Positions 5,761 to 35,590 of a stretch of DNA of 64,000 nucleotides are shown one piece after another; position 1 is the stretch's first letter; each line of letters starts with the position of its first letter. Below the pieces are notes generated by a model. It searched no databases and was not told the DNA's origin. It saw only the letters and a list, made by a program, of their open reading frames with translations. Source of the stretch: an uncultured Thermoanaerobaculia bacterium (GTDB taxonomy: Bacteria > Acidobacteriota > Thermoanaerobaculia > Multivoradales > Multivoraceae); NCBI GenBank assembly GCA_951812325.1, contig OX638294.1, positions 1,278,859 to 1,342,858 of the forward strand. The letters are read 5' to 3'. Both the position numbers and the translations under genes were made by a program.

Positions 5761-7056
5761 TCAAGTGCCGAGAAGAACCACCTTGGCGACGAACAGAACG
5801 GCAAGGACCGCAACGGCCGGACGAATCTCGCTGAACCGGCCGGAAAGCAGCTTGATCGCGGTGTAGGTGATGAAGCCCGCCGCGATGCCGTGGGCGATCG
5901 AGAAACTGAAGGGAATCGTGATCGCCAGTACGACCGCGGGCACGTATTCCGTCGCGTCGCTCCAGTCGATCCCTGTCATGTTCCGGATCATCACGCTGGC
6001 CACGAAGAGCAGGGCGGCCGCGGCGGCGAACGACGGGATCGTTGCCGCAAGAGGCGACAGGAACAGGGTCAGCAGGAAGAGGGCCGAGACCGTGACCGCC
6101 GTCAGGCCGGTGCGCCCACCAGCCTTCACCCCTGCCGCGCTTTCGATGTAGCTCGTGACCGACGACGTGCCCAGGACCGCACCGGCCACCGAAGCGCCGG
6201 AATCCACGATCACCGCCCGCCGGAGCCGGGGCAGGTTGCCCGCCCGGTCGAGCATGCCGCCCTCCCTGGCCACCGCGATCAGAGTGCCCGAGGTGTCGAA
6301 GACATCGGTGAACAGGAAGGCGAGGACGATTCCGAAGAATGCGGCGTCGAACGCGGCGACGACGTCCAACTGTCCGAACGTGGGGGCCAGCGAGGGAACG
6401 GTCGCCACCGCTCCCTGCCAGCTGGTCTCACCGATGAGGATGCCGACCAGGGTCACGGCGAGCATGCCGATCAGCACCGCTCCGGCCTTCTTCAGGGCGT
6501 CCAGGGCCGCGATGAGCACCAGCCCGCTGATCGCGAGCACGACGCTCCAGGAGGTCACGTCCCCGAGTCCGACGAGAGTCGCGTCGTCGGCGACGACGAG
6601 TCCGGCGTTCTCCATCGCGACGAGGGCGAGAAAGTAGCCGATGCCGGCCGCCGTCGCCATCTTCAGCGATCGCGGAAAGGCGTTGACGATCCAGGCCCGG
6701 ATCGGCAGTACGGAGATGATCAGGAAGCAGACGCCCGAGATGAACAGCGCGCCCAGGGCGACCTCCCAGGAATGCCCCATCCCCAACACGACGCCGTAGG
6801 TGAAAAACGCATTGATGCCCATGCCGGGCGCGAGCGCGATCGGGTAGTTCGCGTACAGCCCCATCGCCGCGCTGGCGATCGCCGCCGATAGACAGGTGGC
6901 GACGAACACCGCCCCGCGGTCCATCCCCGCCTCGCCGAGAATCTGCGGGTTGACGACGGCGACATAGGCCATCGTCATGTAGGTCGTCACGCCGGCAACG
7001 ATCTCCCGCCTCGCCGTTGTCCGGTGCTGGTCGAGGCGGAAGAGGCGGTTCAGCAT
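5761..7056 (-). CDS. NCS2-family nucleobase permease (adenine/guanine/hypoxanthine, AzgA/PbuG-like), ~431 aa from ATG 7054-7056; the track ORF extends to 7167 but that part is unlikely to be coding
   Basis: MLNRLFRLDQHRTTARREIVAGVTTYMTMAYVAVVNPQIL... multi-TM protein with the typical AzgA-family N-terminus and motifs. Stop overlaps the RBS of the downstream hypothetical gene. Confidence 0.85.
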   Translation of the reverse strand: MLNRLFRLDQHRTTARREIVAGVTTYMTMAYVAVVNPQILGEAGMDRGAVFVATCLSAAIASAAMGLYANYPIALAPGMGINAFFTYGVVLGMGHSWEVALGALFISGVCFLIISVLPIRAWIVNAFPRSLKMATAAGIGYFLALVAMENAGLVVADDATLVGLGDVTSWSVVLAISGLVLIAALDALKKAGAVLIGMLAVTLVGILIGETSWQGAVATVPSLAPTFGQLDVVAAFDAAFFGIVLAFLFTDVFDTSGTLIAVAREGGMLDRAGNLPRLRRAVIVDSGASVAGAVLGTSSVTSYIESAAGVKAGGRTGLTAVTVSALFLLTLFLSPLAATIPSFAAAAALLFVASVMIRNMTGIDWSDATEYVPAVVLAITIPFSFSIAHGIAAGFITYTAIKLLSGRFSEIRPAVAVLAVLFVAKVVLLGT

Positions 7057-7253
7057 CGTGGCGTGGCCCGGGGGCCGGTTCCGGGCTGGGTCGGCCAGAC
7101 GGCAAACTATCAGCACGAACCGGCCGCCGCCGGTCGTCCGCCGCCTCCTGGTCGGCATCCGCTCCAACTCCCGGCCCTGGATTTCGTCAAGGTCCAGTAG
7201 AGACCCGACCGGGACCAGCCCATCAAGGACCAGGCGAAAGGGAGTTCAGTACA

Positions 7254-7760
7254 ATGCAGAGGACCGTAGTAGAGTCGGACCTGGCAGCCACGAGGCGGAG
7301 CTTGACGGAGGCCGGCTTCGATGACAGACAGGCTCAAACGTTGGTCGACGTGACCGGGACCGCCGCTCAGCAGCGCACGCTCCAGGCCGACGTCGCCGGG
7401 TTGAAGAACGAGGTGGCGCTGCGCAACGAGCGCGTCGACGGTCTCCGAGGCGAGTTCAAGGCCTTTCGCGGCGAGATCGTCGCACGCCTTGAAGCCTCGG
7501 AGGAACGCGTCAAGAACGAGATCGCCGAACTCCGCACGGACATGCAGAGCGGAATCACCGAACTCCGCGCGGAAACGCAGAGCGATATCGCCGAACTACG
7601 CACGGAAATGAGAAGCGGGTTCGCCGCAGTGCACGGGCGGATCGACAGCCTGGAGGAGCGGTTGAAGCTGATGCTCTGGTTCCTCGGAATCGGCCTGACG
7701 CTCTACACGGGCACGACCATCTCCCTGATGGTCCTCCTGTTCCGCAACGTTCTGTCGTGA
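7254..7760 (+). CDS. Coiled-coil protein with C-terminal transmembrane anchor, DUF1640-like (168 aa)
   Basis: ATG 7254 preceded by AAAGGGAG SD. N-terminal LTEAGFDDRQAQTLVDV motif typical of DUF1640, repeated AELRTxMxSGIxELR heptads, C-terminal LMLWFLGIGLTLYTGTTISLMVLLF helix. Confidence 0.6.
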   Translation: MQRTVVESDLAATRRSLTEAGFDDRQAQTLVDVTGTAAQQRTLQADVAGLKNEVALRNERVDGLRGEFKAFRGEIVARLEASEERVKNEIAELRTDMQSGITELRAETQSDIAELRTEMRSGFAAVHGRIDSLEERLKLMLWFLGIGLTLYTGTTISLMVLLFRNVLS

Positions 7761-7844
7761 GCTCCGTTGCCGACCTCAAAGGGGGTTAGCTCCAGGTTTC
7801 CTGTGCGTGCGTACCGGGCGTGCCCACCGGCCAACTGGCGCCGC

Positions 7845-10800
7845 TCACTCCCTGACCGGCCTGACCACGAACAGGAGATCTCCCTGGTTCACCACCTGGC
7901 CGTTCACCGCGTTGACCCGCATCACCTCGTACCGGGCGCCGCGGGCAAACAGATCGCCGCCGGCATCGATCGACGCCAGGGACACCGGACGGAAGAGCTT
8001 CATCGCCTCGATCAGGCACAGCGTCTTCTCCGTCCCCAGAATGTCCCCGACGCGGACGAAGGGCGGATCGTTCGGCGACGACGCGGCATAGAAGAGCCCG
8101 CCGGACGGCGCCCCGACCTTCAACTCGTCACTGCCCTCGATCTCGACCTCGGCGCGGTCCATCGTCGCGGCCACGCCGGCGGAACGTTCGACTTCGCGCA
8201 CCAGTTCGTCGGCTCGAGTGCGGGACAGGAAGCCCGGCAGGTACCGCGTGTCGTACTCCCCGGTGCGGAACTGCTCGTCGTCGAGCACGCGCCGTAGCAA
8301 CGGGAGGTTCGTGCATACGCCCTCGACGGTGACCTCTTCCAGGTAGGAGCGCAGGCGATCGATCGTGTCCGCGCGGTCCCTGCCGTGACAGACGACCTGC
8401 GCCACCAGACTGTCGTAGTACGGCGAGACCACCGTTCCCGTGTCGATCGCTGCCAGGACGTCGATGTCGGAGCGTCGCGGGAACTCGCAGCGGCTCACCG
8501 TCCCCGGCGACGGCAGCAGATCGAGCCCGCCCGGCGTGACGACGACGCGCTCGGCATTGATCCGGACCTCCATCGCATAGCCGTCCTCGGCATCCGGAGC
8601 TTCGGCGATCCGCGCCCCGCCGGCAATCTCGAACTGCGCCTTGACGATGTCCGTTCCACTGACCAGCTCGGTCACCGGGTGCTCGACCTGAAGCCGCGTG
8701 TTCATCTCCATGAAGTAGAGCTTCCGGTCCTCGAGGTCGAAGATGAACTCCACGGTGCCCGCCCCGACATAGCCGATCTCCGCGGCGATCGCCGCGGCAT
8801 GGCGGAAGCTCTGGTCGCGCAGCGCCTCCGGCAACGCCGTCGATCCCGACTCCTCGATCAGCTTCTGGTTGTTCCGCTGCACGCTGCAGTCGCGCAGGCC
8901 CAGCACGCGCACCGTACCGTGCTGGTCGCAGAGCACCTGCACCTCGACATGGCGCAGCGACACGATGCACTTCTCGAGATAGCAATCCGCATTGCCGAAG
9001 GCGCTCTCCGCCTCGATCCGGATGCGGGCGAAGGCCTCCCGAAAGTCCTCCGCCCGGTCGACGCGGCGAATACCCTTGCCTCCGCCCCCGTGAACCGCCT
9101 TGAGCATCACCGGGAAGCCGATCGACTCGGCCACCTCGAGCGCCGTATCGGCGTCGGTCAGGATCCCCTCGCTGCCGGGAACAACCGGTACACCGACCTG
9201 CACGGCGGTCTGGATCGCGTTCGACTTGTTGCCCATCCGCCGCATCGCCTCGCCGGTCGGGCCGATGAAGTTCAGACCGTGGCCCCGGCACAGATCCGCG
9301 AAGGAAGCGCTCTCGGACAGGAAGCCGATCCCCGGATGCAGCGCGTCGACCGCTTCTCGCTCCGCGACACGGATTACCGAGTGGCCGTTCAGGTAGCTCT
9401 CGTCGGGTGTGCTGCCGCCGATGCAGACCAGGCTGTCGCGTTCCCGCAGCATCGCCGCCGCCGGCGACTCGACATCCGGGTCCGACTGGACCAGAACCAC
9501 TTCGATGCCGGACCGCTGAGCGACGCGAACCAGCTTGACCGCGGTGCAACCCCGGGCGTGGATCAAGGCACGGCGCACCGGACGCGGCGCCACAGCCGGC
9601 GCCGGCTGGACGACCTCCGTCTCGCGGCGACGCCGGCGCCCGGACAGGAACTCGACCCGCCGCTCCTCCTCCAGCAGGCGCCGGAGAATGTCCTCGACCG
9701 TCTCCTCCGGCACCGGGATCTGCGAATCGACCTGCCGCAACTGATCGTCCAGTTCCTCGCCGAAGGGATGCTGCACGAGGCCGTGCATCGAGCCCTCGAT
9801 CTCGCTCAGGTAGTTCGAGAGAGTCGAAGCCATCGGCAGATGGGAGGGAACGACGATCTGCCCGGCGAAAGGCATGTTCGTGCCCGAGAAGTAGTAGGTC
9901 TGGACCAGGGGATGGGTGACCAGACTTGCCTGGGCGCCGCCGGTGCAGTCGCCGTAGCCGAAGCAGATCACCGGCAGGTCGTTGTCCCGAACGAAGCGCG
10001 TGATCCGATCATTGACGATCGGCATCGAGAACAGGGCGCCGGCGCCTTCCTTGGTGAGCATGCCGCCCGAGGAAATGAAACAGACGACAGGCAGACGCTC
10101 CTCCGCGGAGCGGAGCAGGAGCTTGCAGAACTTCTCCGCGCTCGCCATGTCGAACGAACCGGCCTGGAACGCGAGGTTGGAAACCAGGACGCCGACCCGG
10201 TTCCCCGCGGCGCCGCCGTCTTCTCCGTCGGCCAGGGCGCCGGTCCGGATCCGGGCCAGAGCCGCCACCGTCCCGCAGGGAGTGACTCCCTGAGCGAGCG
10301 CCCGCTCGATCGACACCCGTAGTCCCGGGAAGCTCACCGGATCGGCCGTCATCCGGTCCGCTTCGAGCTCCTGCACGTCGTGGAAGAACCGATCCAGGAT
10401 CGCCTGAGGCCGGCGCGGCGTGTTCCGCTTCTGCTCGGCCAGTACGTCCTCGAGCAACAGGTCGCGGTAGGCCGCGTCGAGACGGTTCCAGAAGTCCTTG
10501 ATGCCGATGTTGCGCGGCGAGATGCGGCCGTCGTAGCTGCGGATTCCCTGCTCGTCCTCGTAGAAGTTCGGCAGCAGGCGTTCGAACAGGAAGGTCACCA
10601 GGCCGAAGAGCGGCTCCGAGATTCGAGGCATCTGGAGCCGCTTCCACTCGGCCACCGCCTTGAGCTGACGGCCGCGCCGCGGGTGCCGGGCAAAGTGTCT
10701 CAACCAGTAGCGGAACTGCCTGCGCAGACGCGCCTCGGCCTCCTCCGCCGCTTCACCCTCGAGGCCCGCCGTCAGCTCCCCCATCGCCGCGTCCAGCGAG

Positions 10801-12503
10801 TGACGCAGGAGGAGGCGGACCGACTCGCGCGCAATCACGTTCTCTTCGCGCGCCTCGCTGGCAATCTCGCGCAGGTGCAGGAAGATGTGGTCGTAGAGCC
10901 GGTCGAAGCAGATGAAGTTCTCGGACTCGCGCCGGAACAGCCGCAGAAGCTGCGGCTCGAGGATCACGTCGAGCACAGTGAGGTCGGCGGCCTGGGAAAC
11001 CGGCCCCGGTCCGGAGGCCGCGCGCCCTCCTTCGAGCCCCTCCTCCTCGACCGTCCGAATGACCGTCAGCAGTCGCCCGAAGTTGTCCTCCGCCCCGTCC
11101 TTCCACTGGTTGTACAGATGGAATCCGTACTCCAGCAGCAGTTCGTCCCGGGCGCGGTTGAAGCTGTACTCGCGGCTGCCGAGCAGGAGGGAGGCGAGCC
11201 TGCCCCGTGCTTCGTGCAGCGAGTCCCGCGCGGCCGCGTACCGCTTGTAGGTCCGGCTCAGGACGCCGTCGTAGCGAACCGCCAGTGGATTGTCGAACCA
11301 GCGTTCGAACGAGACCCGGCGCTGCCGCTCCCGGCGCGCCCGGGCCGCTCCGGCCGGCACTTCAGCCGCGGCCAGCCGGCCGTAGCCCGACACCGTCTTC
11401 GAGCTCAGGCGGCGGCGCAGTCCCAGGTAGCGCAGGTAACGGAAGGCGACGCCGAACACGTTCGCCTGCTCGGCCGGGCTGTGCAGGCGCGACAGAGGGG
11501 CGAACTCCTCGAGCAGGGACAGACTGCGGGAGGGGTCGACGTACCGCCGGGTGTTGCGGCGGTAGTGCTCGAACACCGCCGGTTCGTCACGCACGAACAC
11601 CTTCGCCCGCTGCTCGACCAGCGCGATCGACGACGTGACCGCAGCCTCGAAGCAGGCCAACCGGTCGCCGCCCTCGCCGGGAACGAAGTCGATCACGCCG
11701 TCGAGATAGCCCTGCTCGTAGAGCTCGTACGCCGACACGCCGACCGCTTTCGCGCACTCCTGCCAGGAAAGGTCGTAACGGCGGACAATATTCGCCAGGC
11801 CGCGGGGCTGGATCGTGTTGAAGACGCCGTCCCGCACCGACAGCAGCACGTTCGTCGTCGCCAGCGGGATGGCGCCGCCCGAGTAGCCGTTGCCGAGCAC
11901 GACGCCGACGGTCGGCGCGTGAAGCTGCGCCATCTCGGCGATCAACCGCGAAATCGCGTGGGCCTGGTTGCCGCGGTTCGCCATCTCGCCCGCGTCCGCT
12001 CCCGGTGTGTCCATCAGGGCAACGATCGGCAGGTTCCGCGCCGCCCAGGAGCGGATCACGTCCACCGCCAGACCGTGGTGCTCCGGCGTCCACACGCCGT
12101 TCTGCACCGAGCGTTCCTGCGCCAGCACGCCGAACCGCCGTGTGTGACCGTCGATCCCGGCCTCGAACACGGCTGCGTAGAGCGGCCCATGGTGACGCTC
12201 TTCGACCAGATCCCAGCTCGTCGCGGCCAGGACTGCACGGGTACCGACACGGCTCGGGTCCTCGGCCGGGGCCACCGTTCGGCGAACGTACTCGTCGACC
12301 TCCAGTCCGGCGAGTCGCTTGAGTGTCTGGCGAATGCGCCGCTTGGAGATCAGACCGCCGATCCGCCCGCTGCCGGCGGCGACATGCGGATCGCGGGACT
12401 CCGGAAACAGCGAGAAGGCCCGCGCCCGCTGCTCCGCGTCGCGGAACAGGGGGTCGACCGCTCCCCGCGAAGGTTCCGCCTGACTCTTGAGCAGAATCGT
12501 CAT
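7845..12503 (-). CDS. Single-polypeptide biotin-dependent (acyl-/acetyl-CoA) carboxylase, 1552 aa. Domain order: CT-alpha-like (AccA), long helical linker, CT-beta-like (AccD), biotin carboxylase (AccC), biotin carboxyl carrier domain (AccB)
   Basis: AccA-like LMDTPGADAG...GNGYSGGAIP. AccD-like LPVVCFISSGGMLTKEG...CFGYGDCTGGAQAS. BC motifs MLKAVHGGGGKGIRRV and EMNTRLQVEHPVTE. C-terminal biotinyl motif EAMKLF. Confidence 0.9.
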   Translation of the reverse strand: MTILLKSQAEPSRGAVDPLFRDAEQRARAFSLFPESRDPHVAAGSGRIGGLISKRRIRQTLKRLAGLEVDEYVRRTVAPAEDPSRVGTRAVLAATSWDLVEERHHGPLYAAVFEAGIDGHTRRFGVLAQERSVQNGVWTPEHHGLAVDVIRSWAARNLPIVALMDTPGADAGEMANRGNQAHAISRLIAEMAQLHAPTVGVVLGNGYSGGAIPLATTNVLLSVRDGVFNTIQPRGLANIVRRYDLSWQECAKAVGVSAYELYEQGYLDGVIDFVPGEGGDRLACFEAAVTSSIALVEQRAKVFVRDEPAVFEHYRRNTRRYVDPSRSLSLLEEFAPLSRLHSPAEQANVFGVAFRYLRYLGLRRRLSSKTVSGYGRLAAAEVPAGAARARRERQRRVSFERWFDNPLAVRYDGVLSRTYKRYAAARDSLHEARGRLASLLLGSREYSFNRARDELLLEYGFHLYNQWKDGAEDNFGRLLTVIRTVEEEGLEGGRAASGPGPVSQAADLTVLDVILEPQLLRLFRRESENFICFDRLYDHIFLHLREIASEAREENVIARESVRLLLRHSLDAAMGELTAGLEGEAAEEAEARLRRQFRYWLRHFARHPRRGRQLKAVAEWKRLQMPRISEPLFGLVTFLFERLLPNFYEDEQGIRSYDGRISPRNIGIKDFWNRLDAAYRDLLLEDVLAEQKRNTPRRPQAILDRFFHDVQELEADRMTADPVSFPGLRVSIERALAQGVTPCGTVAALARIRTGALADGEDGGAAGNRVGVLVSNLAFQAGSFDMASAEKFCKLLLRSAEERLPVVCFISSGGMLTKEGAGALFSMPIVNDRITRFVRDNDLPVICFGYGDCTGGAQASLVTHPLVQTYYFSGTNMPFAGQIVVPSHLPMASTLSNYLSEIEGSMHGLVQHPFGEELDDQLRQVDSQIPVPEETVEDILRRLLEEERRVEFLSGRRRRRETEVVQPAPAVAPRPVRRALIHARGCTAVKLVRVAQRSGIEVVLVQSDPDVESPAAAMLRERDSLVCIGGSTPDESYLNGHSVIRVAEREAVDALHPGIGFLSESASFADLCRGHGLNFIGPTGEAMRRMGNKSNAIQTAVQVGVPVVPGSEGILTDADTALEVAESIGFPVMLKAVHGGGGKGIRRVDRAEDFREAFARIRIEAESAFGNADCYLEKCIVSLRHVEVQVLCDQHGTVRVLGLRDCSVQRNNQKLIEESGSTALPEALRDQSFRHAAAIAAEIGYVGAGTVEFIFDLEDRKLYFMEMNTRLQVEHPVTELVSGTDIVKAQFEIAGGARIAEAPDAEDGYAMEVRINAERVVVTPGGLDLLPSPGTVSRCEFPRRSDIDVLAAIDTGTVVSPYYDSLVAQVVCHGRDRADTIDRLRSYLEEVTVEGVCTNLPLLRRVLDDEQFRTGEYDTRYLPGFLSRTRADELVREVERSAGVAATMDRAEVEIEGSDELKVGAPSGGLFYAASSPNDPPFVRVGDILGTEKTLCLIEAMKLFRPVSLASIDAGGDLFARGARYEVMRVNAVNGQVVNQGDLLFVVRPVRE

Positions 12504-12759
12504 AAACCGCTTACTCTACTCGCTTTCCGGTCGCTCTTCCGCTCGGGTCGGGCCGATTTCCGCCAGCGTCGCCGGGCTCGGCGCCCTGTAGCGGTAGCGG
12601 TTCGCGAGCAGTTCGCGCTGGAGGTCGGCGTCGAGCCCGGCATCCCGCGGAAACGACTCGGCGATCGTCCTCGCCCCACCGGCGGCTGCCGGCGCGAATG
12701 CGAAGCGTACGTCCATCCCGGCCTCCCCTCTGTCGATTCCGCCCGCGACTGCCTACACT

Positions 12760-13698
12760 ATGCCTCCGAAGGCCCCCGAAGGCCCCCAAGGCCCGCCGGG
12801 ACATGAACGTCCTGCCAACCATCGAGTATCTCCTGTATCTCCTGACTGCATTGTGGACTTTCTTCCAGGCATCGTCGGTTCCTTCGCCGACCCGGCGGCC
12901 GAGAACCCGACGGTGGAGATGGTCGAGGCGGCATTCCGCCATCACGGCCTGCACTGGCGCTACCTGAACTGCGAAGTGCCGCCCGATCTGCTGGCCGACG
13001 CGGTCGCTGGCGCCCGCGCGATGGGCTGGGCAGGCTTCAACTGCTCGCTCCCGCACAAGGTCGCCGTGATCGAGCACCTCGACGGCCTCGGCGAGTCGGC
13101 CCGCCTGATCGGGGCGGTGAACTGCGTCGTCCGTGACGACGAAAGCCGCTTCATCGGCCAGAACACGGACGGCAAGGGCTTCCTCCGCTCCCTCGAGGAG
13201 ATCACGCCAGCGGCCGGAAAGCGGGCGTTGATCTTCGGCGCCGGCGGCGCCGCGCGGGCGATCGCGGTGGAACTCGCCCTGGCTGGGGCCAGCTCGATCA
13301 CTGTCGTCAATCGGACGAGCGAACGCGGCGAGGAACTCGCGGCCCACATCGGCAGCCACACCGCGACCCGCGCCCGGTTCGAACCCTGGCGCGGCGTCTA
13401 CCGGATCGCCGCGGCGGTCGACATCCTGATCAACGCGACCTCGATCGGTCTGTTCCCGCATGTCGACGAGGAACTGCCGTTCGACCCAGGCACGCTCCTG
13501 CCCGCGATGGTGGTCGCCGACGTGATTCCGAATCCCCCGAAGACGCGCCTGCTCCAGGCGGCGGCGAAGCGCGGCTGCACGGTGCTCGACGGCCTCGGCA
13601 TGCTGGTCAACCAGGGAGTCGACGGGATCCGCTACTGGACGGGAGTCGACGTCGACCCTCGGGTCATGCGAGCCCGCCTGGAGGCGATCTTCGGCTGA
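12760..13698 (+). CDS. aroE: Shikimate/quinate dehydrogenase family protein (AroE-like); start uncertain (ATG 12760 or GTG ~12853)
   Basis: NTDGKGF...ALIFGAGGAARAIAVELALAGASSITVVNRTSERGEEL (NADP-binding GAGGA Rossmann) and the substrate-domain N/D motifs of the AroE family. Confidence 0.75.
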   Translation: MPPKAPEGPQGPPGHERPANHRVSPVSPDCIVDFLPGIVGSFADPAAENPTVEMVEAAFRHHGLHWRYLNCEVPPDLLADAVAGARAMGWAGFNCSLPHKVAVIEHLDGLGESARLIGAVNCVVRDDESRFIGQNTDGKGFLRSLEEITPAAGKRALIFGAGGAARAIAVELALAGASSITVVNRTSERGEELAAHIGSHTATRARFEPWRGVYRIAAAVDILINATSIGLFPHVDEELPFDPGTLLPAMVVADVIPNPPKTRLLQAAAKRGCTVLDGLGMLVNQGVDGIRYWTGVDVDPRVMRARLEAIFG

Positions 13699-17633: not shown

Positions 17634-17823
17634 GATCCCCTCTCCATCATTCCGACCTCCCCGCATCTGACGGCAACTGGTGAACGACAGATTGTGACAC
17701 GCGTCCCCGGCCGAATCGGCCCGGGTCGGGCCGATCCCGTCGTTGCCATTGACTTACGCCCTGTTCCCGCTTAGAGTCAGGAAGACGAGCGCGAGCCCCG
17801 ATGCCGGGGGGAGCGGAGACGCG

Positions 17824-18558
17824 ATGGCCGACCACAGCACGATCGAATGGACCGATGCCACCTGGAACCCCGTGATCGGCTGCACCAGGGTCAGCGCCGG
17901 CTGCGCCCACTGCTACGCGGAACGGTTCACCGAACGGTTCCGCGGCGTACCCGGGCACCCCTTCGAGCACGGCTTCGACCTTCGTCTCGTGCCGGCCCGG
18001 CTCGATCAGCCGCGACGCTGGCGGCGGCCGCGCCGTATCTTCGTCAACTCGATCAGCGATCTCTTCCATCCGAACGTCCCGGAAACCTACATCGCCGAGG
18101 TCGGCCACGTCATGCGCGATGTCGAGCGGCATACCTACCAGGTCCTGACCAAACGCCACGACCGGATGCGTCGTCTCCTGGCCGGAGAACTCTCCTGGAT
18201 GGGAGACCTGCCGAACGTCTGGTTCGGAGTCAGCGTCGAGAACCGCCGCCAGGGCCTGCCGCGGCTGGACGCCCTCCGCGCGACGCCGGCCGCCGTCCGG
18301 TTCGCCTCCATCGAACCGCTACTCGAGGACCTGGGCGACTTCGACCTCAGCTCCATCGACTGGGTCATCGCCGGCGGCGAGAGCGGCCCCGGCGCCCGCC
18401 CGATGCGCGAGGACTGGGTTCTGGGCATCCTCCATCAATGCCGCCGCCAGGGTGTGCCGTTCTTCTTCAAGCAATGGGGCGGCGTCCGCAAGAGCCGCAA
18501 CGGCCGTCTGTTGCAGGGCAGGACCTACGACGAGATTCCCGGGCAACTGGCCGGTTGA
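17824..18558 (+). CDS. Three-Cys-motif protein of the phage Gp37/Gp68 family (PF07505/DUF5131), copy A, 244 aa from ATG 17824
   Basis: MADHSTIEWTDATWNPVIGCTRVSAGCAHCYAERF... (C-x6-C-x2-C). ~80% identical to the minus-strand copy at 35591..36316. Confidence 0.8.
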   Translation: MADHSTIEWTDATWNPVIGCTRVSAGCAHCYAERFTERFRGVPGHPFEHGFDLRLVPARLDQPRRWRRPRRIFVNSISDLFHPNVPETYIAEVGHVMRDVERHTYQVLTKRHDRMRRLLAGELSWMGDLPNVWFGVSVENRRQGLPRLDALRATPAAVRFASIEPLLEDLGDFDLSSIDWVIAGGESGPGARPMREDWVLGILHQCRRQGVPFFFKQWGGVRKSRNGRLLQGRTYDEIPGQLAG

Positions 18559-20809: not shown

Positions 20810-22195
20810 ATGACGACCAGCAGCACGAGCCGTTTCCCAGAGGCCCTGGTGCTGATCTTCGCCATGATCGTGGCGGCGCAGGTCCTCACTTACGTCCTGC
20901 CCGCCGGCGAGTACGAGCGCGATGGCCGGCAGGTGCTGGCCGGCACCTACCACGCCGTCGAAGCAGCGTCCTTGCCTTGGCACGCCGCCCTGACCAAGGT
21001 GCCCAGGGGCCTCGAGGCGGCCGGCGAGATCATCTTCTTCGTCTTCCTGGTCGGCGGCGCGATCGGGGTCATCCGCGCCACGGGCGCAATCGACGCGGCG
21101 ATCGGGCGCGCAATCAGCACGCTCGGGGGCCGACCGATCCTGCTGGTCGGCGGGATGACGGCCCTGTTCGCGGTCGGCTCGTCGACGATCGGCATGGCCG
21201 AGGAGTACATGCCCTTCGTGCCCATCCTGGTCGCGATGTGCATCGCCCTGAAGATGGACGCCGTGGTGGCCTTGGGCATGGTCTACCTCGGCGCCGGGAT
21301 CGGCTACGGCGCCGCGGCAATCAACCCGTTCACGGTGATGATCGCCAAGGACATCGCCGGCCAGGATCCGGGTACCGGTTTCGGGCTCAGGTGGGCGCTG
21401 TTGGCGGTCATGCTCCTCGTCGCCGTCCACCACCTGCTCCGGTACGCGCGGCGCATCGCCGCCGATCCCGAACGGAGCCTGGTCCGGGACGTCGACTACG
21501 GCGGCGGCGGCCACGAACTGACCGCGGCCGAGCTGACGCCGGCACGACTCGGCATCCTCGCCGCGTTCACCGCGATGATCGGCATCTTCATCTGGGGCGT
21601 GAACGTCCACGGCTGGTACCTGGTCGAACTCGCCGCGCTGTTCCTCGGCGTGACGATCATCGCCGCCGCCCTCGGCCGCGTGTCGCCGAACCGCACCGCG
21701 CGAGCGTTCACGACCGGCGCCGCCGAACTGACCGGCACGGCGCTGCTGATCGGTTTCGCGCGCACGATCGAGGTCGTGCTCTCCGACGCGCGGGTCATCG
21801 ACACCGTGATCCACGGCATCGCCTCGTTGCTACAGAAGGCCGAGGGCCTGGGCGCGGGCGCCGCGGTCGTCTCGGCCTGGGGCATGCTCTTGGTCCAGAG
21901 CGTGTGCAACTTCCTGATCCCCTCGGGCAGCGGGCAGGCCTACGTCACGATGCCGATCATGGCGCCGCTCGCGGACCTCACGGGGGTCGGCCGCGAGACC
22001 TCGGTGCTCGCCTACCAGCTCGGCGACGGCCTGATGAACCTGATCGTGCCGACGAACGCCCTGCTGATGGGCATGCTGCTCCTGGCCCGCATCCCGTACC
22101 AGCGCTGGCTGCGCTTCATCCTGCCCGCCATCGTCAAGCTCTATCTGGTCGCGATGGCCGTGCTGGCGGTCGCCGCCCTGATGCGCTTCGAGTAG
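20810..22195 (+). CDS. YfcC/DcuC-family integral membrane transporter (461 aa)
   Basis: Multi-TM protein with YfcC-family motifs (IFFVFLVGGAIGVI..., NFLIPSGSGQAYVTMPIMAPLADL). Confidence 0.75.
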   Translation: MTTSSTSRFPEALVLIFAMIVAAQVLTYVLPAGEYERDGRQVLAGTYHAVEAASLPWHAALTKVPRGLEAAGEIIFFVFLVGGAIGVIRATGAIDAAIGRAISTLGGRPILLVGGMTALFAVGSSTIGMAEEYMPFVPILVAMCIALKMDAVVALGMVYLGAGIGYGAAAINPFTVMIAKDIAGQDPGTGFGLRWALLAVMLLVAVHHLLRYARRIAADPERSLVRDVDYGGGGHELTAAELTPARLGILAAFTAMIGIFIWGVNVHGWYLVELAALFLGVTIIAAALGRVSPNRTARAFTTGAAELTGTALLIGFARTIEVVLSDARVIDTVIHGIASLLQKAEGLGAGAAVVSAWGMLLVQSVCNFLIPSGSGQAYVTMPIMAPLADLTGVGRETSVLAYQLGDGLMNLIVPTNALLMGMLLLARIPYQRWLRFILPAIVKLYLVAMAVLAVAALMRFE

Positions 22196-22257
22196 TCGCC
22201 GGGCGCGCCTGCGGTCTCCTTGGCTCGCACGGCTACGACCCGCTACGCTCGCGCCAA

Positions 22258-25200
22258 GTGACGCCCCACGCGACGACTTCGTCAACCTACGGCGACGAAC
22301 TCCCGGAACACGACCCGGAGGTCGGTCAACTCGTCCATGTCCGTAGCCGCCGCTGGCTGGTCGAGCACGTCCGGCCCGGCGAGAGGCCCGGCGAATCCTC
22401 GATCGTCCGCCTCGCCTGCGCCGAAGACGACGCCCAGGGCGAGGAGATCGAGGTCTTCTGGAAGGTCGAGATCGACCGGCGCATCCTGAAGCAGGAAGGC
22501 TGGGGCGAACTCGCCGCGAGAGGCTTCGACACGCCGCCCCGGTTCGCCGCCTTCCTCCACACGCTGCGCTGGAACTGCGTCACCGCCACCGACCCCGACC
22601 TGTTCCAGGCGCCCTTCCGTGCCGGCATCAAGCTGGACGCCTACCAGATGGAGCCGCTGCGCAAGGCGCTCCGAATGCCGCGGGTCAACCTCTTCATCGC
22701 CGACGACACCGGCCTGGGGAAGACGATCGAGGCCGGCCTGATCGCCCGCGAACTCCTGCTCCGCAAGAAGGTCCGGACGATCGTCGTCTCCGCGCCGAGT
22801 TCCGTCCTCGAACAGTGGCAGGCCGAGATGGAGGAGCGCTTCGGACTGCTGTTCGAGATCCTCGACCGCGCGTACTTCACCCGCATTCGGCGCGAGCGCG
22901 GCTTCGGCGTCAACCCCTGGAAGACCCACAGCCGCTTCCTGGTCTCCCACAACCTGCTCCGGGATCCGACGTACGCCGATCCGATGCGGGCCTGGCTCGG
23001 CCCGGTGCTCCGCGGCAGCCTGTTTATTCTCGACGAAGCACACCACGCGGCGCCTTCGAGCGGCGGACGATACGGCATCGAGTCGAAGTTCACTCGCGCG
23101 ATTCGGGACCTGAGCCACCGCTTTGAGCACCGCCTCTTCCTCTCCGCGACGCCGCACAACGGCCACTCGAACAGCTTCTCCACCCTCCTGGAGCTGCTCG
23201 ACCCCCATCGATTCACACGCGGCGTCGGCGTACGCAGCGAGTCGCTGGATGCGGTCATGGTGCGCAGGCTCAAGGAGGACATCCGCGAAGTCCAGGGCGG
23301 GTTCCCGCAGCGCAACGTCGTGCCCGTCCGAATCGACAATCTGCCCGCCAATCAGCCGGAGCTCGAACTGTCTCGTCTGCTCGACGAGTATCGGACGGCC
23401 CGCGCTGAGAGATTCAGGAAGGCGACCAGCAGCGTCCAGGCTGCCTCCGGCCTGCTCGTCGTCGGCCTGCAGCAGCGCCTGCTGTCGTCCATCGAGGCGT
23501 TCGCGGTCAGCCTGCGGACCCACCGCCAGACGGTCGCTCGGCAGCGCGACCAGGAACTCCAACAACAGGCCGGCGCCGCCACGACCACCCGCGCCAGGAC
23601 GGAAGCTCAACTCTTCGTCTCGGCATCCGGGGCAACCGGCGCCGACGGCGACCAGGAGGACGAAGCAGCGTGGACCTCGGAGGAAGCCGAACGGGAAGAA
23701 GCGCGCCAGATCGAGACGATCACCGCCGCGACGGAAGCCGCCGCGACCTCGCTCGTTGGCGCCGCAACCGCCGAAGCGCCGGACGAGAGGCTCTGGCTAC
23801 GCGAGAAGGCCCTCCTGGACCGCATGGAGCAGGTCGCCGCGCAAGCCCGTGGCCGGCCCGACGCCAAGACGCGCCGCCTCGTCGACTGGATTCGCGAGAA
23901 CCTCTGCCCCGACCTCCCGCCGCTCGGAACGGCGTTGCCGCCAGGTACGCCGCCACCGCGCTGGAACAACCGGCGGCTGCTGATCTTCACGGAGAACCGC
24001 GTGGGCACGAAGCGCTACCTCCGCAACATGCTGGAGAGCGCCATCGCCTGCTCCGACCGAGCCGAGAATCGCATCGTCACCATCGACGGCCACACCCGCG
24101 GCGCCGCCCGGCGCGAGATCCAGCGCCGGTTCAACGCCGAGCCCGAAAACGACCCGCTGCGCATCCTCCTGGCGACCGACGCCGCCCGCGAGGGACTGAA
24201 CTTCCAGGCCCACTGCACGGACCTGTTCCACTTTGACCTGCCATGGAATCCCGGCCGCATCGAGCAGCGGAACGGTCGCATCGACCGGAAGCTCCAGCCG
24301 GCCAGCGAAGTCAACTGCCACTACTTCGTTCTGCCTCAGCGGGCCGAGGACCGCGTACTGGAGGTCCTCGTCGAGAAGACGGAGACGATCCGAAAGGAAC
24401 TCGGAAGCCTGTCCAGGGTGATCGACGACCGGATCGAACGTCGCCTGAAGAGCGGCGGCATACCCCACGGCACGGTCGACCGACTCGCGGCCCGGATCGC
24501 GGCAGCCGATCTCCAGGTCGAGCGCAAACGCGTCGCCGCCGAGGAACTGGAGAGCGCCCGCCAGCGCCGAAGCGACCTCCAGGGCCAGATCAACCGCTGC
24601 CAGACCCTGCTCCAGAACTCGCGAAAGTGGGTTCAGTTCGACGTCGAGCCGTTCCGGGATGCACTTTCCTGTTCACTCGAGCTGCTGGGCGCAAAGCCGC
24701 TGCAAGCGACGCGGAACGAGAGGCGCGAAACGAGGTGGACCTTCCCCGCCCTCGACGGCCAGACCTCCGCCGACCCCACCTGGGCACGTACGCTCGACTC
24801 CCTGCGCCGGCCGCGGCGGCGCAATCAGAAGCTCACCGACTGGCGCAAGGAGGAGCCGCCCCGCCCCATCGTGTTCGAAGACGCCGGCGTACTGACCGAC
24901 GAGACGGTCCACCTGCATCTCGAACAACGGGTAGCGCAGCGGCTCCTCGCGCGCTTTCGCTCCCAGGGCTTCCTTCACCACGACTTGTCGCGCGCCTGTC
25001 TCGCCCAGGCCGTCGACTCGATCCCCAGAGTCGTCCTTCTCGCCCGGCTGTCTCTCTACGGCAGCGGCGCCGAGCGCCTGCACGAGCAGGTCATCACCGT
25101 GGCCGCCCGCTGGGTCGAGCCGTCGCGCCGCACGGCGCCGCTTAAGGCCTACGCCCGTCACGCGGAACAACGGACGCTCGACCTGCTTGAAGTGTCCCTT

Positions 25201-25635
25201 GCCGGAACGAGTGGACGACCGGTGAACGAGGTGGTAGCGCAGAGGCTCCTGAACGCCGCAGCGCGCGACATCGAGGAACTGCGTCCTCAGCTCGAACCAC
25301 GAAGCCGGGAACTCGCCGCAGTCGCGACGAAGCGGCTCCAGGAGCGCGGCGAGCGAGAGTCTCGTGAACTGCGCGCGATTCTGAAACAGCAGCGCCAGCG
25401 GGTCCGCGACGAACTGCAACTGAGAGACAACCAGTTCGTTCAGCGCACACTCGCCTTCAACCGCGGCGAAGAGCGGCAGTTGCGGGCCGACATGCGTTCC
25501 TGGCGCACGCGACTGGAGCAATTCGACTGCGACTTGGAGCACGAACCCCAACGCATTCGCAACTTCTACGAGGTCCGCGTAGCGCCGCCCGTCGAACCGC
25601 TGGGCATCGTCTACCTATGGCCGGAGACGAACTGA
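22258..25635 (+). CDS. drmD: SNF2-family helicase, DISARM drmD-like (~1125 aa; start tentative GTG 22258)
   Basis: SNF2 N-terminal motifs LDAYQMEPL, ADDTGLGKTIEAG, DEAHHAA, SATPHNG. Helicase C motifs LLATDAAREGLNFQ...FDLPWNPGRIEQRNGRIDR. Long C-terminal coiled-coil extension. Directly upstream of the methyltransferase. Confidence 0.8.
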   Translation: MTPHATTSSTYGDELPEHDPEVGQLVHVRSRRWLVEHVRPGERPGESSIVRLACAEDDAQGEEIEVFWKVEIDRRILKQEGWGELAARGFDTPPRFAAFLHTLRWNCVTATDPDLFQAPFRAGIKLDAYQMEPLRKALRMPRVNLFIADDTGLGKTIEAGLIARELLLRKKVRTIVVSAPSSVLEQWQAEMEERFGLLFEILDRAYFTRIRRERGFGVNPWKTHSRFLVSHNLLRDPTYADPMRAWLGPVLRGSLFILDEAHHAAPSSGGRYGIESKFTRAIRDLSHRFEHRLFLSATPHNGHSNSFSTLLELLDPHRFTRGVGVRSESLDAVMVRRLKEDIREVQGGFPQRNVVPVRIDNLPANQPELELSRLLDEYRTARAERFRKATSSVQAASGLLVVGLQQRLLSSIEAFAVSLRTHRQTVARQRDQELQQQAGAATTTRARTEAQLFVSASGATGADGDQEDEAAWTSEEAEREEARQIETITAATEAAATSLVGAATAEAPDERLWLREKALLDRMEQVAAQARGRPDAKTRRLVDWIRENLCPDLPPLGTALPPGTPPPRWNNRRLLIFTENRVGTKRYLRNMLESAIACSDRAENRIVTIDGHTRGAARREIQRRFNAEPENDPLRILLATDAAREGLNFQAHCTDLFHFDLPWNPGRIEQRNGRIDRKLQPASEVNCHYFVLPQRAEDRVLEVLVEKTETIRKELGSLSRVIDDRIERRLKSGGIPHGTVDRLAARIAAADLQVERKRVAAEELESARQRRSDLQGQINRCQTLLQNSRKWVQFDVEPFRDALSCSLELLGAKPLQATRNERRETRWTFPALDGQTSADPTWARTLDSLRRPRRRNQKLTDWRKEEPPRPIVFEDAGVLTDETVHLHLEQRVAQRLLARFRSQGFLHHDLSRACLAQAVDSIPRVVLLARLSLYGSGAERLHEQVITVAARWVEPSRRTAPLKAYARHAEQRTLDLLEVSLAGTSGRPVNEVVAQRLLNAAARDIEELRPQLEPRSRELAAVATKRLQERGERESRELRAILKQQRQRVRDELQLRDNQFVQRTLAFNRGEERQLRADMRSWRTRLEQFDCDLEHEPQRIRNFYEVRVAPPVEPLGIVYLWPETN

Positions 25636-25693
25636 TGAGCGGCGTGCGACAGGTGGCAGGGTTCGCGTCATCAGCACGGCGCCGCCCGTAGCG

Positions 25694-28600
25694 ATGCCGA
25701 AGCTCGACGCGAACACAAGAGCCCACCTCGAGTGGCTCGGCTTCGTCCGGCCGACCGGCCTCGTGGTGTCGCCGCCGGCGCTCAACAAGGCCGGCGCCGT
25801 GCTGGAACGGGCCGATCGGGAGGGCCAGCGGCTGCTTCGCGACGCGGTATCCGAGCGGGAGTTCAAGCCCGGCGAAGGTCGCCAGCCCTGGCTGCCCGCC
25901 TTCGAGGACTTCGCCCGCTCGGTCCTCGGCTGGCGCTTCTCTCCCGAGGGCTACGCGGGCGGGAGCGCGGCGCCGATTCCCGACGAACTGAGCCTTCACC
26001 TTCCGGACTGCGGCGAGACCCTGAGACCCGACTTCGCGGTCCGCGAACGAAGCCCGAACGAGGATGGCTCGCGCTGGCAACTGCTCGTGCAGACCGTCGA
26101 ACCGGGCCTGAGCTTCGACCGCGCGGTCTCCGGCGCCGGCAAGCTGGAAGCCTCCCCGCACAGCCGCATGGAACGCCTTCTGCGAGCGAAGGCGGTTCCC
26201 GCCGGGCTGCTGTTCAACGGCCGCGCCTTGCGCCTCGTCTCGGCGCCGCGCGGCGAGACTTCCGGCTGGACCGACTTCCAACTCGCCGACATGCTGCTTG
26301 TGGCGGGCCGCCCGATCTGCACCGCCCTGCGCCTGCTCCTGAACGAGCAGCGGCTGCTCGCCTTGCCCAGGCGCCAACGACTGGCCGCGCTCCTGGCGGA
26401 CAGCCGCAAGTACCAGAACGAGGTCAGCGAACGCCTGGCCGAGCAGGTCCTGCATGCCCTCTACGAACTGCTGCGCGGCTTCCAGGCGGCGCACGACGCG
26501 TCGAGAAAGGAACTCCTGGGCGACCAGTTGCGCGAGGATCCGGGCGGCATCTACCACGGCCTTCTCACCGTGGTGCTGCGCCTGGTTTTCCTGCTCTACG
26601 CCGAAGAGCGCGATCTCCTCTCCGAAGAGGCAACCTTCGTCCGCCACTACTCCCTGGCCAGTCTCCACGACCGGCTGCGGGCCGACGCGGCGCTCCACCC
26701 CGACACGATGGACCAGCGCTACGGCGCCTGGGCCCAGTTGCTGGCGCTGTTTCGCATGATCCACAACGGCGCCGCAGCCGCCGACCTCCGCCTTCCGCCC
26801 CGGCACGGCGTGCTCTTCGATTTCGACCGCTTTCCGTTCCTGGAAGGTCGGCCCCCGGGAAGCGTGGCCCAGAACCACGAGCGCGTCGCGGCGCCGCTCG
26901 TGTCCGACGGCACGGTCCATCGCGCTCTGGAGAAGCTCCTCGTGCTCGACGGCGACCGCCTCTCCTACCGCGCGCTGGACGTCGAGCAGATCGGCTCCGT
27001 CTACGAAACGATGATGGGCTTCCGCCTCGAACGCGCCGAGGGACCTTCGTGCGCGATCAAGCCAGCCAAAAGGCACGGCGCGCCCGCCACGGTGAACCTG
27101 GCAGCGCTGCTCGAAAAACCAGTCGATCGGCGCGTCCGCTGGTTTCGCGAACGGACCGACCGCAGGCTGACCGACAAGGCCGCGAAGGCGCTACGGAACG
27201 CCCGGACGATCGACGAACTTCACGCCGGCCTCGACCGCGTGATCGACCGCGCCGCGACCCCCGACCTGGCGCCGAAGGGCCACATGATCCTCCAACCGAG
27301 CGATGAACGCCGACGCTCGGGCTCGCACTACACGCCGCGCGAACTCACCGAACCGATCGTCCGGGACACCCTGGAACCGATCCTCGACCGGCTGCGAGAG
27401 CAAGCCGCGGGAAGCGCGGGCCAGGAACCGGCAACACCGCCAGACCTGTCGGCGCCCGCTGAACACGGATCGCGAGTACGTAGCCCACGTCATCAGGGAC
27501 CGGCAACAGCGCCCGACCTGTCGGCGCGCGGGCCTTCCGGCCCGCATCCAGCTCCGACGACAAAAGCGCCTCGGCCGGAACAGATCCTCGGACTCAAGGT
27601 CTGCGACCCGGCGATGGGCTCCGGCGCCTTCCTCGTCGAATCCTGCCGTCAACTCGGCGACGCCCTGGTCGACTCCTGGCACGCCCACGACGCGGCGCCG
27701 CCCATCCCGCCCGACGAAGACGAAGCCGTCCACGCCCGGCGTCTCGTCGCCCGCAACTGCCTCTACGGCGTGGATCGGAACGCCGTCGCCGTGGACCTGG
27801 CGAAGCTCTCGCTCTGGCTGACGACGCTCGCCAGGGACCATCCCCTGACGTTCCTCGACCACGCGCTTCGCCACGGCGATTCCCTGGTCGGCCTGGCGCC
27901 GGAACAGATCCAGGCCTTCCACTGGAAGGGCAAGGAGAAGCGCTTCCAGGCCGGCATCGAGACGACCTGGATTCGAGAGCAGGTCGAGAAGGCGTTGCGC
28001 CTGAGACGGGCGATCCAGGAGGCGCGCGACGACACGCCGGACTGGGTACTGCGCGATCGGCTGGACCAGGCGGAGGACGAACTGGCTCGGGTCAAGCGGA
28101 ACGGCGACCTCGTCGTTGCGGCCTTCTTCGAACGCCAGAAGCCCGGCGAGCGTGAAGCCCTGCGCCGGTCGTTCGCCGCCGAACTTCAGTTCGAGACTGC
28201 GAGCGGCTCAGGGGGCAAGCCATCGTCCCGGCCGGGCGAAGACGAACAAGCATCCGTTCCGGCTTCCGTCTCGGGTCACTCCGGCAGTTCCGGCAGCATC
28301 CGCGCCTCCCCCTCGAACGCGATCTCGACGATCGGTTGGCTGGAGGAATTCCGAAACGGCGACCCGCCACTGGCGCCGTTTCACTGGGCAATCGAGTACC
28401 CCGAGGTCTTCCTGCTTGAAGAGCGCGAGAATTCCGGCTTCGACGCGGTCGTGGGGAACCCGCCGTTCGCCGGCAAGAACACGATCGGCAACGCGAACGT
28501 ACCGGGCTACAAGGCTTGGCTGAAGCAGCTCCACGAAGAAAGCCACGGCAACGCGGACCTTGTCGCCCACTTCTTCAGGCGCGCGTTCACGCTGGTTCGC

Positions 28601-29977: not shown

Positions 29978-30121
29978 GAAGCCGGGACCGCCCCAGGTCC
30001 AGGGCCGATCACGTCGCGGGCCCGCTTTGCAGTCACCGCTGCCCGTGTGAGAGAGTTGTCCGCAGCAAGCCGACCGGCCCACCAGCGCCGACTCCTCCCC
30101 CACCTTCCCGCGCACCCCGCC

Positions 30122-31117: not shown

Positions 31118-31126
31118 GTCAGGCCA

Positions 31127-34264: not shown

Positions 34265-34482
34265 ATCGGGCCGTGGACTCCCGGTCCACGAGGTCCGGCG
34301 CAACTCCTCACGCTCCGCCGTCGTGCTACCGTCGCTCCGACAGCCATCGTCCCCCGGTCCGCCTGGGCCACACAGTTGCGGATCGACTGCGCTGCCGGCT
34401 CGAACTCGCGAGCCAGTTGGTCCGGGGTTGACTGCCGAGATCTTTTCGAACAATGAAGCCGCTGGAAATTCCAAGAAACTCC

Positions 34483-35577: not shown

Positions 35578-35590
35578 AGCCCTCGGGTCC

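Follow-up and report, generated by a model that had tools for sequence, protein, structure and literature searches.

Gene and domain organization

The window analysed here is a 64-kb stretch of DNA from a Thermoanaerobaculia acidobacterium. On its reverse strand, at 7845..12503, lies a complete coding sequence for a predicted AccS-type single-chain acetyl-CoA carboxylase (ACC) of 1552 residues, the stop codon of which occupies 7845..7847. In exact agreement with the first-pass annotation of the window, the ORF list and the translation give a single uninterrupted ORF with an ATG start; only four codons separate this ATG from the upstream in-frame stop. The composition of the ORF is of the coding type (GC3 of 0.88 versus GC2 of 0.46) and uniform along its length, and a protein in public data (P0001) is identical to its product. 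No promoter or terminator was predicted in 7000..13000, and tRNA and Rfam scans across the window gave no matches. The ORF at 20977..25635 also codes for 1552 residues. It was considered as a possible paralogue and rejected, as its product has no similarity to that of 7845..12503; it overlaps a DcuC transporter gene in its 5' part, and the remainder corresponds to the DISARM helicase DrmD.

The first-pass annotation had proposed that four functions are fused in this protein, in the order carboxyltransferase (CT)-alpha, helical linker, CT-beta, biotin carboxylase (BC) and biotinyl domain (BCCP), and the domain positions from Pfam and NCBIfam agree with this. The N-terminal segment ahead of the CT-alpha core (residues 1-95; 12219..12503) is mostly helical, with helices at residues 18-93 in an AlphaFold model of residues 1-960 (pLDDT 80, pTM 0.76), and has a mean identity of 42% with distant family members. 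The CT-alpha half, which is AccA-like (residues 96-276; 11676..12218), was recognized by Pfam (ACCA at 136-272, 1e-24) and NCBIfam (AccA_sub at 129-276, 7e-29) and matches the AccA chains 9m70_B, 2f9i_A and 2f9y_A of the PDB. Its invariant glycine pair, G209-G210, sits in GNGYSGGAIPLA.

The AccD-like CT-beta half (residues 741-930; 9714..10283) harbours the motif SSGGM with G813-G814. Failure to detect a CT-beta fold at residues ~740-900 had been named beforehand as an observation that would overturn the domain assignment. The fold was detected through the PDB AccD chains 9m70_A (at 752-887, 5e-6) and 2f9i_B (at 766-863, 6e-6), through NCBIfam accD (at 767-862, 1.7e-7, covering model positions 119-213 only) and through the full-length match to PDB entry 9KKM described below; Pfam Carboxyl_trans matches in two stretches (3.5e-17). 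CT-beta is the most conserved domain of the AccS-type family, with a mean identity of 72%. The N-terminal Cys4 zinc ribbon found in AccD of heteromeric enzymes is missing ahead of this domain, C743 being the sole cysteine in residues 532-793. Both CT halves are of the AccA/AccD type, with matches to AccA at 1e-13 to 1e-17 versus 1e-9 to 1e-10 for PCC-beta.

The two CT halves are separated by an all-helical, family-specific linker or scaffold of ~460 residues (residues 277-740; 10284..11675), somewhat longer than the ~400 residues first estimated. Its helices span residues ~280-706 in the AlphaFold models of residues 1-960 and of the linker alone. Many of its residues are invariant, including W402, Y411, D412, W467, K468, F533, D534, W620 and K621. 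Among 1.84 billion cluster representatives, only 104 proteins match the linker; the long ones (~1400-1640 residues) have this domain architecture, with the match at an equivalent place along the chain, and short fragments make up many of the others. A Foldseek search of the PDB with the linker-only model returned 9kkm_A as the only significant match (7.9e-20), the next having E>0.5. We therefore rejected the idea that the linker corresponds to the central domain of eukaryotic ACCs or to another known fold.

The CT module is joined to BC by a poorly conserved hinge (residues 931-975; 9579..9713), whose mean identity with distant members is 22%; residues 952-960, the last of the modelled stretch, have pLDDT values below 50. 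BC itself, an AccC-like ATP-grasp domain (residues 976-1425; 8229..9578), was identified by Pfam (Biotin_carb_N at 977-1087, CPSase_L_D2 at 1093-1300 with 2.6e-60, Biotin_carb_C at 1312-1422), by NCBIfam (accC at 978-1423, 1.8e-137) and by matches to BC chains of the PDB at 1e-96 to 1e-105. It carries the glycine-rich loop HGGGGKG and MEMNTRLQVEHPVTE, both invariant in an alignment of 40 family members.

A tether of low conservation (39%; residues 1426-1460; 8124..8228) lies between the end of BC at 1422 and the start of Biotin_lipoyl at 1463, as defined by Pfam. The C-terminal BCCP domain (residues 1461-1552; 7848..8123) was delimited using NCBIfam TIGR00531 (at 1439-1547, 3.6e-12), a weak Pfam Biotin_lipoyl match (1463-1507) and the alignment with the BCCP of 9kkm_A. 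The biotinyl motif EAMKLF noted in the first annotation is present at residues 1499-1504, within IEAMKLFRP, and it aligns with EAMKMF of Shewanella oneidensis AccS. The predicted biotin attachment site is K1502 (codon at 7998..8000), and E1499, A1500, M1501 and K1502 are invariant in the 40 family members. These share just 52-59% identity, yet the motifs of BC, the glycine pairs of the two CT halves and EAMK do not vary; GYSGGA, SSGGM, HGGGGKG, MEMNTRLQVEHPVTE and EAMK are all invariant or nearly so.

Relationship to AccS of S. oneidensis

A phmmer search of the PDB aligned residues 16-1551 of the protein collinearly with residues 16-1516 of chain 9kkm_A (E=0, 1542 bits). Entries 9KKM and 9W4A, released on 2025-11-19, are described as 'Acetyl-CoA carboxylase multifunctional enzyme AccADCB' and correspond to the cryo-EM structure of the dimeric S. 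oneidensis holoenzyme. This protein is AccS (SO_0840). The fold of residues 1-960 is also shared, as Foldseek matched our model to 9kkm_A with an E value of 1.2e-69, a TM score of 0.79 and 45% identity. Literature searches found neither a paper describing the 9KKM structure nor one reporting biochemical substrate tests on AccS. The 9KKM map has been reused in a cryo-EM methods preprint.

In S. oneidensis, AccABCD homologues were not found and AccS, a protein of 1517 residues, replaces them, with an additional free-standing AccB, SO_0511, being kept (PMC4793157, 2016). AccS was later described as a single-polypeptide acetyl-CoA carboxylase with a domain order unlike that of the eukaryotic enzymes (PMC11602165, 2024). 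The same study attributed a biotinylated band of ~170 kDa in S. oneidensis to AccS and reported that reduced AccS expression causes a growth defect, which is rescued by accS or by accA, accD and accBC of Escherichia coli.

The S. oneidensis and acidobacterial proteins thus have in common CT-alpha, the helical linker, CT-beta, BC and BCCP on one chain (1517 versus 1552 residues), the fold of residues 1-960, including that of the linker, and the biotinylation motif EAMK(L/M)F. They differ at roughly half of their residues (45% identity over residues 1-960, by Foldseek) and in their hosts, a gammaproteobacterium and an acidobacterium, respectively. The initial premise that known bacterial single-chain carboxylases all have a BC-BCCP-CT order is outdated in view of PMC4793157, PMC11602165 and PDB entries 9KKM and 9W4A, which document the AccS layout. 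Since the CT-first fused layout was already known from S. oneidensis AccS, the product of 7845..12503 is an ordinary new acidobacterial member of this family.

Comparison with other biotin-dependent carboxylases

All four units are homologous to those of the heteromeric AccA/AccD/AccC/AccB enzymes of E. coli and Staphylococcus aureus (2F9Y, 2F9I, 1BNC, 8UXZ); the glycine pairs of CT-alpha and CT-beta, the ATP-grasp motifs of BC and the AMK biotinyl motif are common to both. However, the heteromeric enzymes are made of four polypeptides rather than one, and the helical scaffold has no counterpart in AccA or AccD. The matches to the NCBIfam ACC equivalog models are all below the curated cut-offs, which indicates that the domains have diverged from the canonical subunits.

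Eukaryotic single-chain ACCs have the order BC-BCCP-central domain-CT, and in their CT the N (beta-like) half precedes the C (alpha-like) half. The acidobacterial protein resembles them in having all activities on a single chain and a swinging BCCP, and a dimer is probably the active form. In contrast, its order is reversed, with CT first and the alpha-like half ahead of the beta-like one, and it is devoid of the central domain; the Pfam and NCBIfam positions bear out the non-eukaryotic order proposed at the outset. BC-BCCP-CT single-chain carboxylases of bacteria include LCC of Mycobacterium avium subsp. paratuberculosis (PDB 5FIF for its CT domain) and SeACC of Saccharopolyspora erythraea (PMC6491548). 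These are likewise single-chain biotin-dependent acyl-CoA carboxylases, but in them BC comes first and the single CT is PCC-beta-like, whereas in the acidobacterial protein CT precedes BC and consists of an AccA-like and an AccD-like half. The Foldseek match of the 1-960 model to 5fif is weak (~7e-6, TM score of 0.19).

Family distribution and genomic context

We found more than 100 collinear full-length homologues of 1500-1650 residues in independent assemblies of several phyla, including complete chromosomes. The full-length members belong to Acidobacteriota, Planctomycetota, Verrucomicrobiota, Lentisphaerota, Desulfuromonadales, SAR324, Longimicrobiales and two separate gammaproteobacterial clades. 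The family is therefore spread far more widely than stated in PMC11602165, where AccS is said to occur in "a small group" of gammaproteobacteria. Relatives are named only "ATP-grasp domain-containing protein" by NCBI, and the product of 7845..12503 does not attain the cut-off of any NCBIfam model.

The divergent neighbour of the gene in the window codes for shikimate dehydrogenase (12760..13698). It stands in place of AccR, the divergent LysR-type activator that accompanies accS in Shewanella-like gammaproteobacteria and is absent from this locus. Among the related loci, L046 and L048 have a divergent LysR gene upstream, as confirmed by Pfam, and L047 has an ORF homologous to it. Gene-neighbourhood clustering of 77 related loci revealed conservation within clades only and no neighbours conserved across clades, so that the context gives no pathway assignment. 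In one Hahellaceae locus (L066), the accS-type gene follows immediately after fabV in the same orientation, which fits a role in fatty-acid synthesis. The initial observation that no separate accABCD genes are present in the window held in a tblastn search, in which these 64 kb, a small part of the roughly 4.6-Mb genome, yielded no further paralogue of BC or CT; none was found in the flanks of the 77 loci either.

Proposed function

Taken together, the sequence comparisons suggest that 7845..12503 encodes an AccS orthologue, i.e. a single-polypeptide acetyl-CoA carboxylase, to which we give a probability of about 85%, the function being transferred across ~45-50% identity. The absence of AccR and the lack of neighbours conserved across clades count against this assignment. 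The enzyme most likely feeds fatty-acid synthesis in this Thermoanaerobaculia ("Ca. Multivorans"-like) acidobacterium, with acetyl-CoA as its probable substrate, probable biotinylation in vivo and a presumed housekeeping role in the host. Its C-terminal BC would use ATP and bicarbonate to carboxylate the biotin on K1502 of BCCP, and BCCP, on its flexible tether of ~35 residues, would then swing over to the N-terminal carboxyltransferase. The active form is probably a homodimer, as in the solved S. oneidensis holoenzyme. The earlier view that substrate specificity is unpredictable appears too pessimistic, because the CT halves are of the AccA/AccD rather than the PCC/MCC type and because the characterized orthologue behaves as the acetyl-CoA carboxylase of the cell.

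If the genome also carries accABCD, the AccS protein need not be the housekeeping enzyme. It might then be a specialized second carboxylase beside canonical AccABCD, acting on another short acyl-CoA such as propionyl-CoA, or supplying malonyl-CoA to a dedicated pathway, for instance for polyketides or a 3-hydroxypropionate-type route, and not to fatty-acid synthesis in general. The sub-cut-off scores of the equivalog models, the JGI annotation of relatives as 'acetyl/propionyl-CoA carboxylase' and the extra AccB, SO_0511, that S. oneidensis retains are in line with such a role. We nevertheless consider it unlikely, given that CT differs from the PCC/MCC/LCC type, which serves larger acyl-CoAs, that the E. 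coli ACC is functionally interchangeable with the characterized orthologue (PMC11602165) and that neither in the window nor in any of the 77 related loci does the gene lie within a biosynthetic cluster.

There is a very small chance that the protein, although catalytically intact, works mainly in the reverse direction, or is a transcarboxylase or decarboxylase, instead of being an ATP-dependent carboxylase. Decarboxylases and transcarboxylases do include CT domains of this superfamily, and Foldseek gave matches to 1on3 and 5vip at ~1e-5. However, such enzymes need no BC domain, and the protein has in cis a complete, conserved ATP-grasp BC with all the ATP- and bicarbonate-binding motifs. The odds that the long ORF is an artefact, either an assembly or annotation join of separate acc genes or a decaying, non-functional fusion, are close to nil. 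The unusual length of the protein and the existence of a 901-residue relative (P0079) spanning the CT half only might hint at it, but the coding composition is uniform, the linker and catalytic residues are invariant and the same single chain has a solved structure (9KKM). A misassembly joining two genes, which the first-pass annotation had envisaged, is excluded by the more than 100 collinear full-length homologues from several phyla.

The predicted AccS-type acetyl-CoA carboxylase of this acidobacterium adds little to enzymology, as the Shewanella enzyme has already provided the architecture, its genetics and a cryo-EM structure. We find it quite unlikely that acidobacterial AccS is more than a housekeeping enzyme, for instance that it coexists with AccABCD and has a specialized role or an altered acyl-CoA preference, for example to provide lipid or polyketide chemistry with extender units. 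A milder form of this idea would be that AccS is the sole ACC in many phyla and has been overlooked through its 'ATP-grasp domain-containing protein' label. With this generic name and with no NCBIfam cut-off reached, automated metabolic reconstructions may count these lineages as lacking acetyl-CoA carboxylase. If the milder form were true, metabolic reconstructions of AccS-bearing lineages would wrongly report that ACC is missing.

A single-chain carboxylase of the AccS type

The carboxylase gene at 7845..12503 (-) is one ORF with an ATG start and 1552 codons, according to the ORF listing and translation, and merely four codons separate its ATG from the 5' limit of the stop-to-stop frame. Its GC content by codon position (0.71/0.46/0.88) is typical of coding DNA in a genome of 68% GC, which indicates a real gene. 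Pfam and NCBIfam matches bore out the domain order proposed in the first-pass annotation, i.e. the alpha and beta halves of the carboxyltransferase (CT), biotin carboxylase (BC) and the biotinyl carrier domain (BCCP) in one chain. Pfam identified ACCA (residues 136-272, 1e-24), Carboxyl_trans in two stretches, three biotin-carboxylase domains (residues 977-1422; CPSase_L_D2, 2.6e-60) and, weakly, Biotin_lipoyl (residues 1463-1507). The NCBIfam matches were AccA_sub (residues 129-276, 7e-29), accD (767-862, 1.7e-7), accC (978-1423, 1.8e-137) and BCCP (1439-1547, 3.6e-12). The CT-beta-like fold at residues ~740-900, on which that annotation had made its reading depend, was detected by the accD model and, in a PDB sequence search, by the solved AccD chains 9m70_A (752-887, 5e-6) and 2f9i_B (766-863). 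The biotinyl motif EAMKLF of the C-terminal domain was likewise read in the translation, with K1502 encoded at 7998..8000.

The inverted, fully fused arrangement had been regarded as a novelty, but it is already known as AccS (SO_0840, 'AccADCB') of Shewanella oneidensis (PDB 9KKM/9W4A; PMC4793157, PMC11602165). In the PDB sequence search, residues 16-1551 of the window protein aligned to residues 16-1516 of 9kkm_A (E=0, 1542 bits; also 9w4a), a 1517-aa chain entitled "Acetyl-CoA carboxylase multifunctional enzyme AccADCB". The Foldseek description gives 9KKM as a cryo-EM holoenzyme dimer of the S. oneidensis E1238A mutant, released 2025-11-19. AlphaFold2 modelling of residues 1-960 from an alignment of 40 family members (pLDDT 80, pTM 0.76) gave a match to 9kkm_A at E 1.2e-69 and TM 0.79, with 45% identity across 934 columns, followed in the Foldseek ranking by ordinary AccA subunits at TM about 0.2. 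The window protein agreed with the AccS family in all sequence- and structure-level features tested and is therefore a further member of this described type. It is neither a eukaryotic-type enzyme nor of the LCC/SeACC type, whose order is BC-BCCP-CT.

In S. oneidensis, homologues of the E. coli AccABCD proteins are absent and AccS is found in their place, although SO_0511, a free-standing homologue of AccB, is retained (Luo et al. 2016, PMC4793157). A later study noted that AccS has another domain order than the eukaryotic enzymes and saw it as a biotinylated band of ~170 kDa. Loss of accR, the LysR-type regulator gene divergent from accS, lowers accS expression and thereby impairs growth, which either accS or E. 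coli accA+accD+accBC restores (Xu et al. 2024, PMC11602165). We consider that the window gene codes for an AccS-type acetyl-CoA carboxylase (probability about 0.85), its activity and biotinylation being predicted. The main alternative, a specialised paralogue acting alongside canonical AccABCD, appears unlikely. As the first-pass annotation had noted, no separate accABCD genes are present in the 64-kb window, and no other acc genes were found there or in the flanks of related loci, which make up a small share of the genome.

Conserved motifs and the helical linker

In biotin-dependent carboxylases, BC uses ATP and bicarbonate to carboxylate the biotin on BCCP, and a swing of BCCP brings this biotin to the active site of CT. 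By homology, the BC of the AccS-type window protein would carboxylate the BCCP biotin with the same substrates, BCCP would swing to a CT site at the interface of the alpha-like and beta-like halves, and the carboxyl group would be transferred there to acetyl-CoA. In the 40-sequence alignment, whose distant members are 52-59% identical to the window protein, mean identity to these members is highest in CT-beta (72%) and CT-alpha (67%), followed by BC (60%), BCCP (50%), the helical linker (44%), the BC-BCCP tether (39%) and the CT-BC hinge (22%). Invariant or nearly so are the glycine pairs G209-G210 of CT-alpha (within GYSGGA) and G813-G814 of CT-beta (within SSGGM), the BC glycine-rich loop HGGGGKG, the MEMNTRLQVEHPVTE segment and E1499-A1500-M1501-K1502. 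The MEMNTRLQVEHPVTE segment includes E1274, which aligns with E1238, the residue changed to alanine in 9KKM. Unlike canonical AccD, whose core is preceded by a Cys4 zinc ribbon, the window CT-beta has none, C743 being the sole cysteine between residues 532 and 793.

Structure models show the linker (residues 277-740) as entirely helical, and many of its residues are invariant in the alignment, which argues for a structured scaffold rather than a flexible spacer. The linker is specific to the family, with only 104 matching proteins among 1.84 billion cluster representatives. In the long matches (~1400-1640 aa) its relative position along the chain is the same, and many others are short fragments. 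With a linker-only model, 9kkm_A was the sole PDB match (Foldseek, 7.9e-20; next E>0.5).

Distribution of the family

Public sequence data include an identical protein, encoded on a contig of 4.63 Mb. The protein database search also yielded 15 cluster representatives with 81-90% identity and >100 further full-length relatives of 1500-1650 aa with 51-58% identity, and a scan of species-representative genomes found this gene, in collinear form, at 77 loci. These homologues exclude a misassembly joining two genes, which the first-pass annotation had envisaged. The closest loci (81-90%) belong to MAGs labelled Thermoanaerobaculia, Holophagales, Acidobacteriota or "Candidatus Multivorans", which places the window in the Thermoanaerobaculia/"Candidatus Multivorans" acidobacterial lineage. 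More distant loci of the scan come from Vicinamibacterales, Longimicrobiales, Pseudomonadales/"Azotimanducaceae", Cellvibrionales, HTCC2143, Hahellaceae and SAR324, and the protein search added, by name, AccS-type proteins of Planctomycetes, Verrucomicrobia, Lentisphaerae and Desulfuromonadales. The family thus spans many phyla, more broadly than the "small group of bacteria" to which it was said to be confined (PMC11602165).

Two distinct gammaproteobacterial clades carry the AccS architecture. Among the 77 loci, the window protein is 53-57% identical to the Pseudomonadales-like clade versus 47-49% to the Shewanella-like clade, and hence closer to the former than its taxonomy would predict. 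This sequence comparison hints at horizontal transfer between the acidobacterial lineage and the Pseudomonadales-like clade. The proteins of the latter clade (loci L056-L077; matches of 4806-4884 nt, ~1600-1630 aa) are ~70-110 residues longer than the acidobacterial and Shewanella-type ones.

Gene neighbourhood

The carboxylase gene stands alone, and no promoter-like or terminator-like sites were detected around it. Upstream and divergent is a shikimate dehydrogenase gene (12760..13698); downstream and convergent is a gene for a 247-aa coiled-coil protein (7017..7760, +; CCDC90-like/DUF1640, Pfam 1.4e-11), and beyond it one for a xanthine/uracil-family permease (5761..7167). The coiled-coil ORF fails the GC3 filter; it is probably a real gene, as convergent ORFs at the matching position cluster in 24 related acidobacterial loci. 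In the neighbourhood clustering of the 77 loci, the window neighbours are retained among close relatives, but different clades have no conserved neighbour in common.

Among the gammaproteobacteria, the marine loci nearest to the Shewanella enzyme have LysR-type genes upstream of accS in divergent orientation, which matches the published accR-accS layout. Those of L046 (8770-9702, -) and L048 (8892-9824, -) have Pfam HTH_1 and LysR_substrate domains, and the ORF of L047 (8655-9599, -) looks homologous by sequence. In contrast with Shewanella accS, the window gene has no such divergent gene, nor do those of the other clades. In a Hahellaceae MAG, a FabV-type enoyl reductase gene (L066:8601-9830, +; Enoyl_reductase, 5.5e-102) precedes accS by 171 bp in the same orientation; it is the sole direct fatty-acid-synthesis context link among the loci and fits such a role. 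Most L056-L077 loci (19) have a conserved divergent gene with a MoCF_biosynth domain (MoaB/Mog-like) upstream of accS.

Defence genes in the window

The window also harbours a DISARM class-1-like system (22198..44204, + strand genes) divided by inserted genes. It comprises DrmD (1.9e-300) within the ORF 20977..25635 (+), DrmMI (25694..29977, +; E=0), DrmA (38938..42360, +), after a ~9-kb stretch 3' of DrmMI, and DrmB (42357..44204, +). No DrmC was detected in this region, 44412..44930 being without a match. The DrmD helicase corresponds only to the portion of its ORF from about 22.2-22.3 kb on, the 5' part overlapping in a different frame the real DcuC transporter gene (20810..22195). This ORF is not a carboxylase paralogue; its equal length (1552 aa) is coincidental, with no sequence similarity. 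The DrmMI-DrmA interval (30047..38797; GC 0.62-0.66 versus ~0.68-0.70 around) looks like a defence islet nested within the operon. Its defence candidates are IetA (30047..31117), IetS (31127..33490), a PDC-M30A/M41A-like gene (34483..35640, -) paired with a DUF5131 gene (PDC-M30B/M41B; 35591..36316, -), and a HEC-01A-type ATPase (37244..38797). A second DUF5131 copy (17743..18558, +) lies outside the island next to sugar ABC-transporter genes, with no obvious partner gene (Pfam 4e-96 and 5e-94 for the two copies; padloc PDC-M41B/M30B).

Annotation of the family

Public annotation of the AccS family is uninformative. NCBI calls its members "ATP-grasp domain-containing protein" or "biotin carboxylase N-terminal domain-containing protein", JGI uses 'acetyl/propionyl-CoA carboxylase alpha subunit', and the window protein scores below the curated cut-off of every NCBIfam model. 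Because of these generic names and sub-cut-off scores, automated reconstructions may count acetyl-CoA carboxylase as missing in AccS-bearing genomes.
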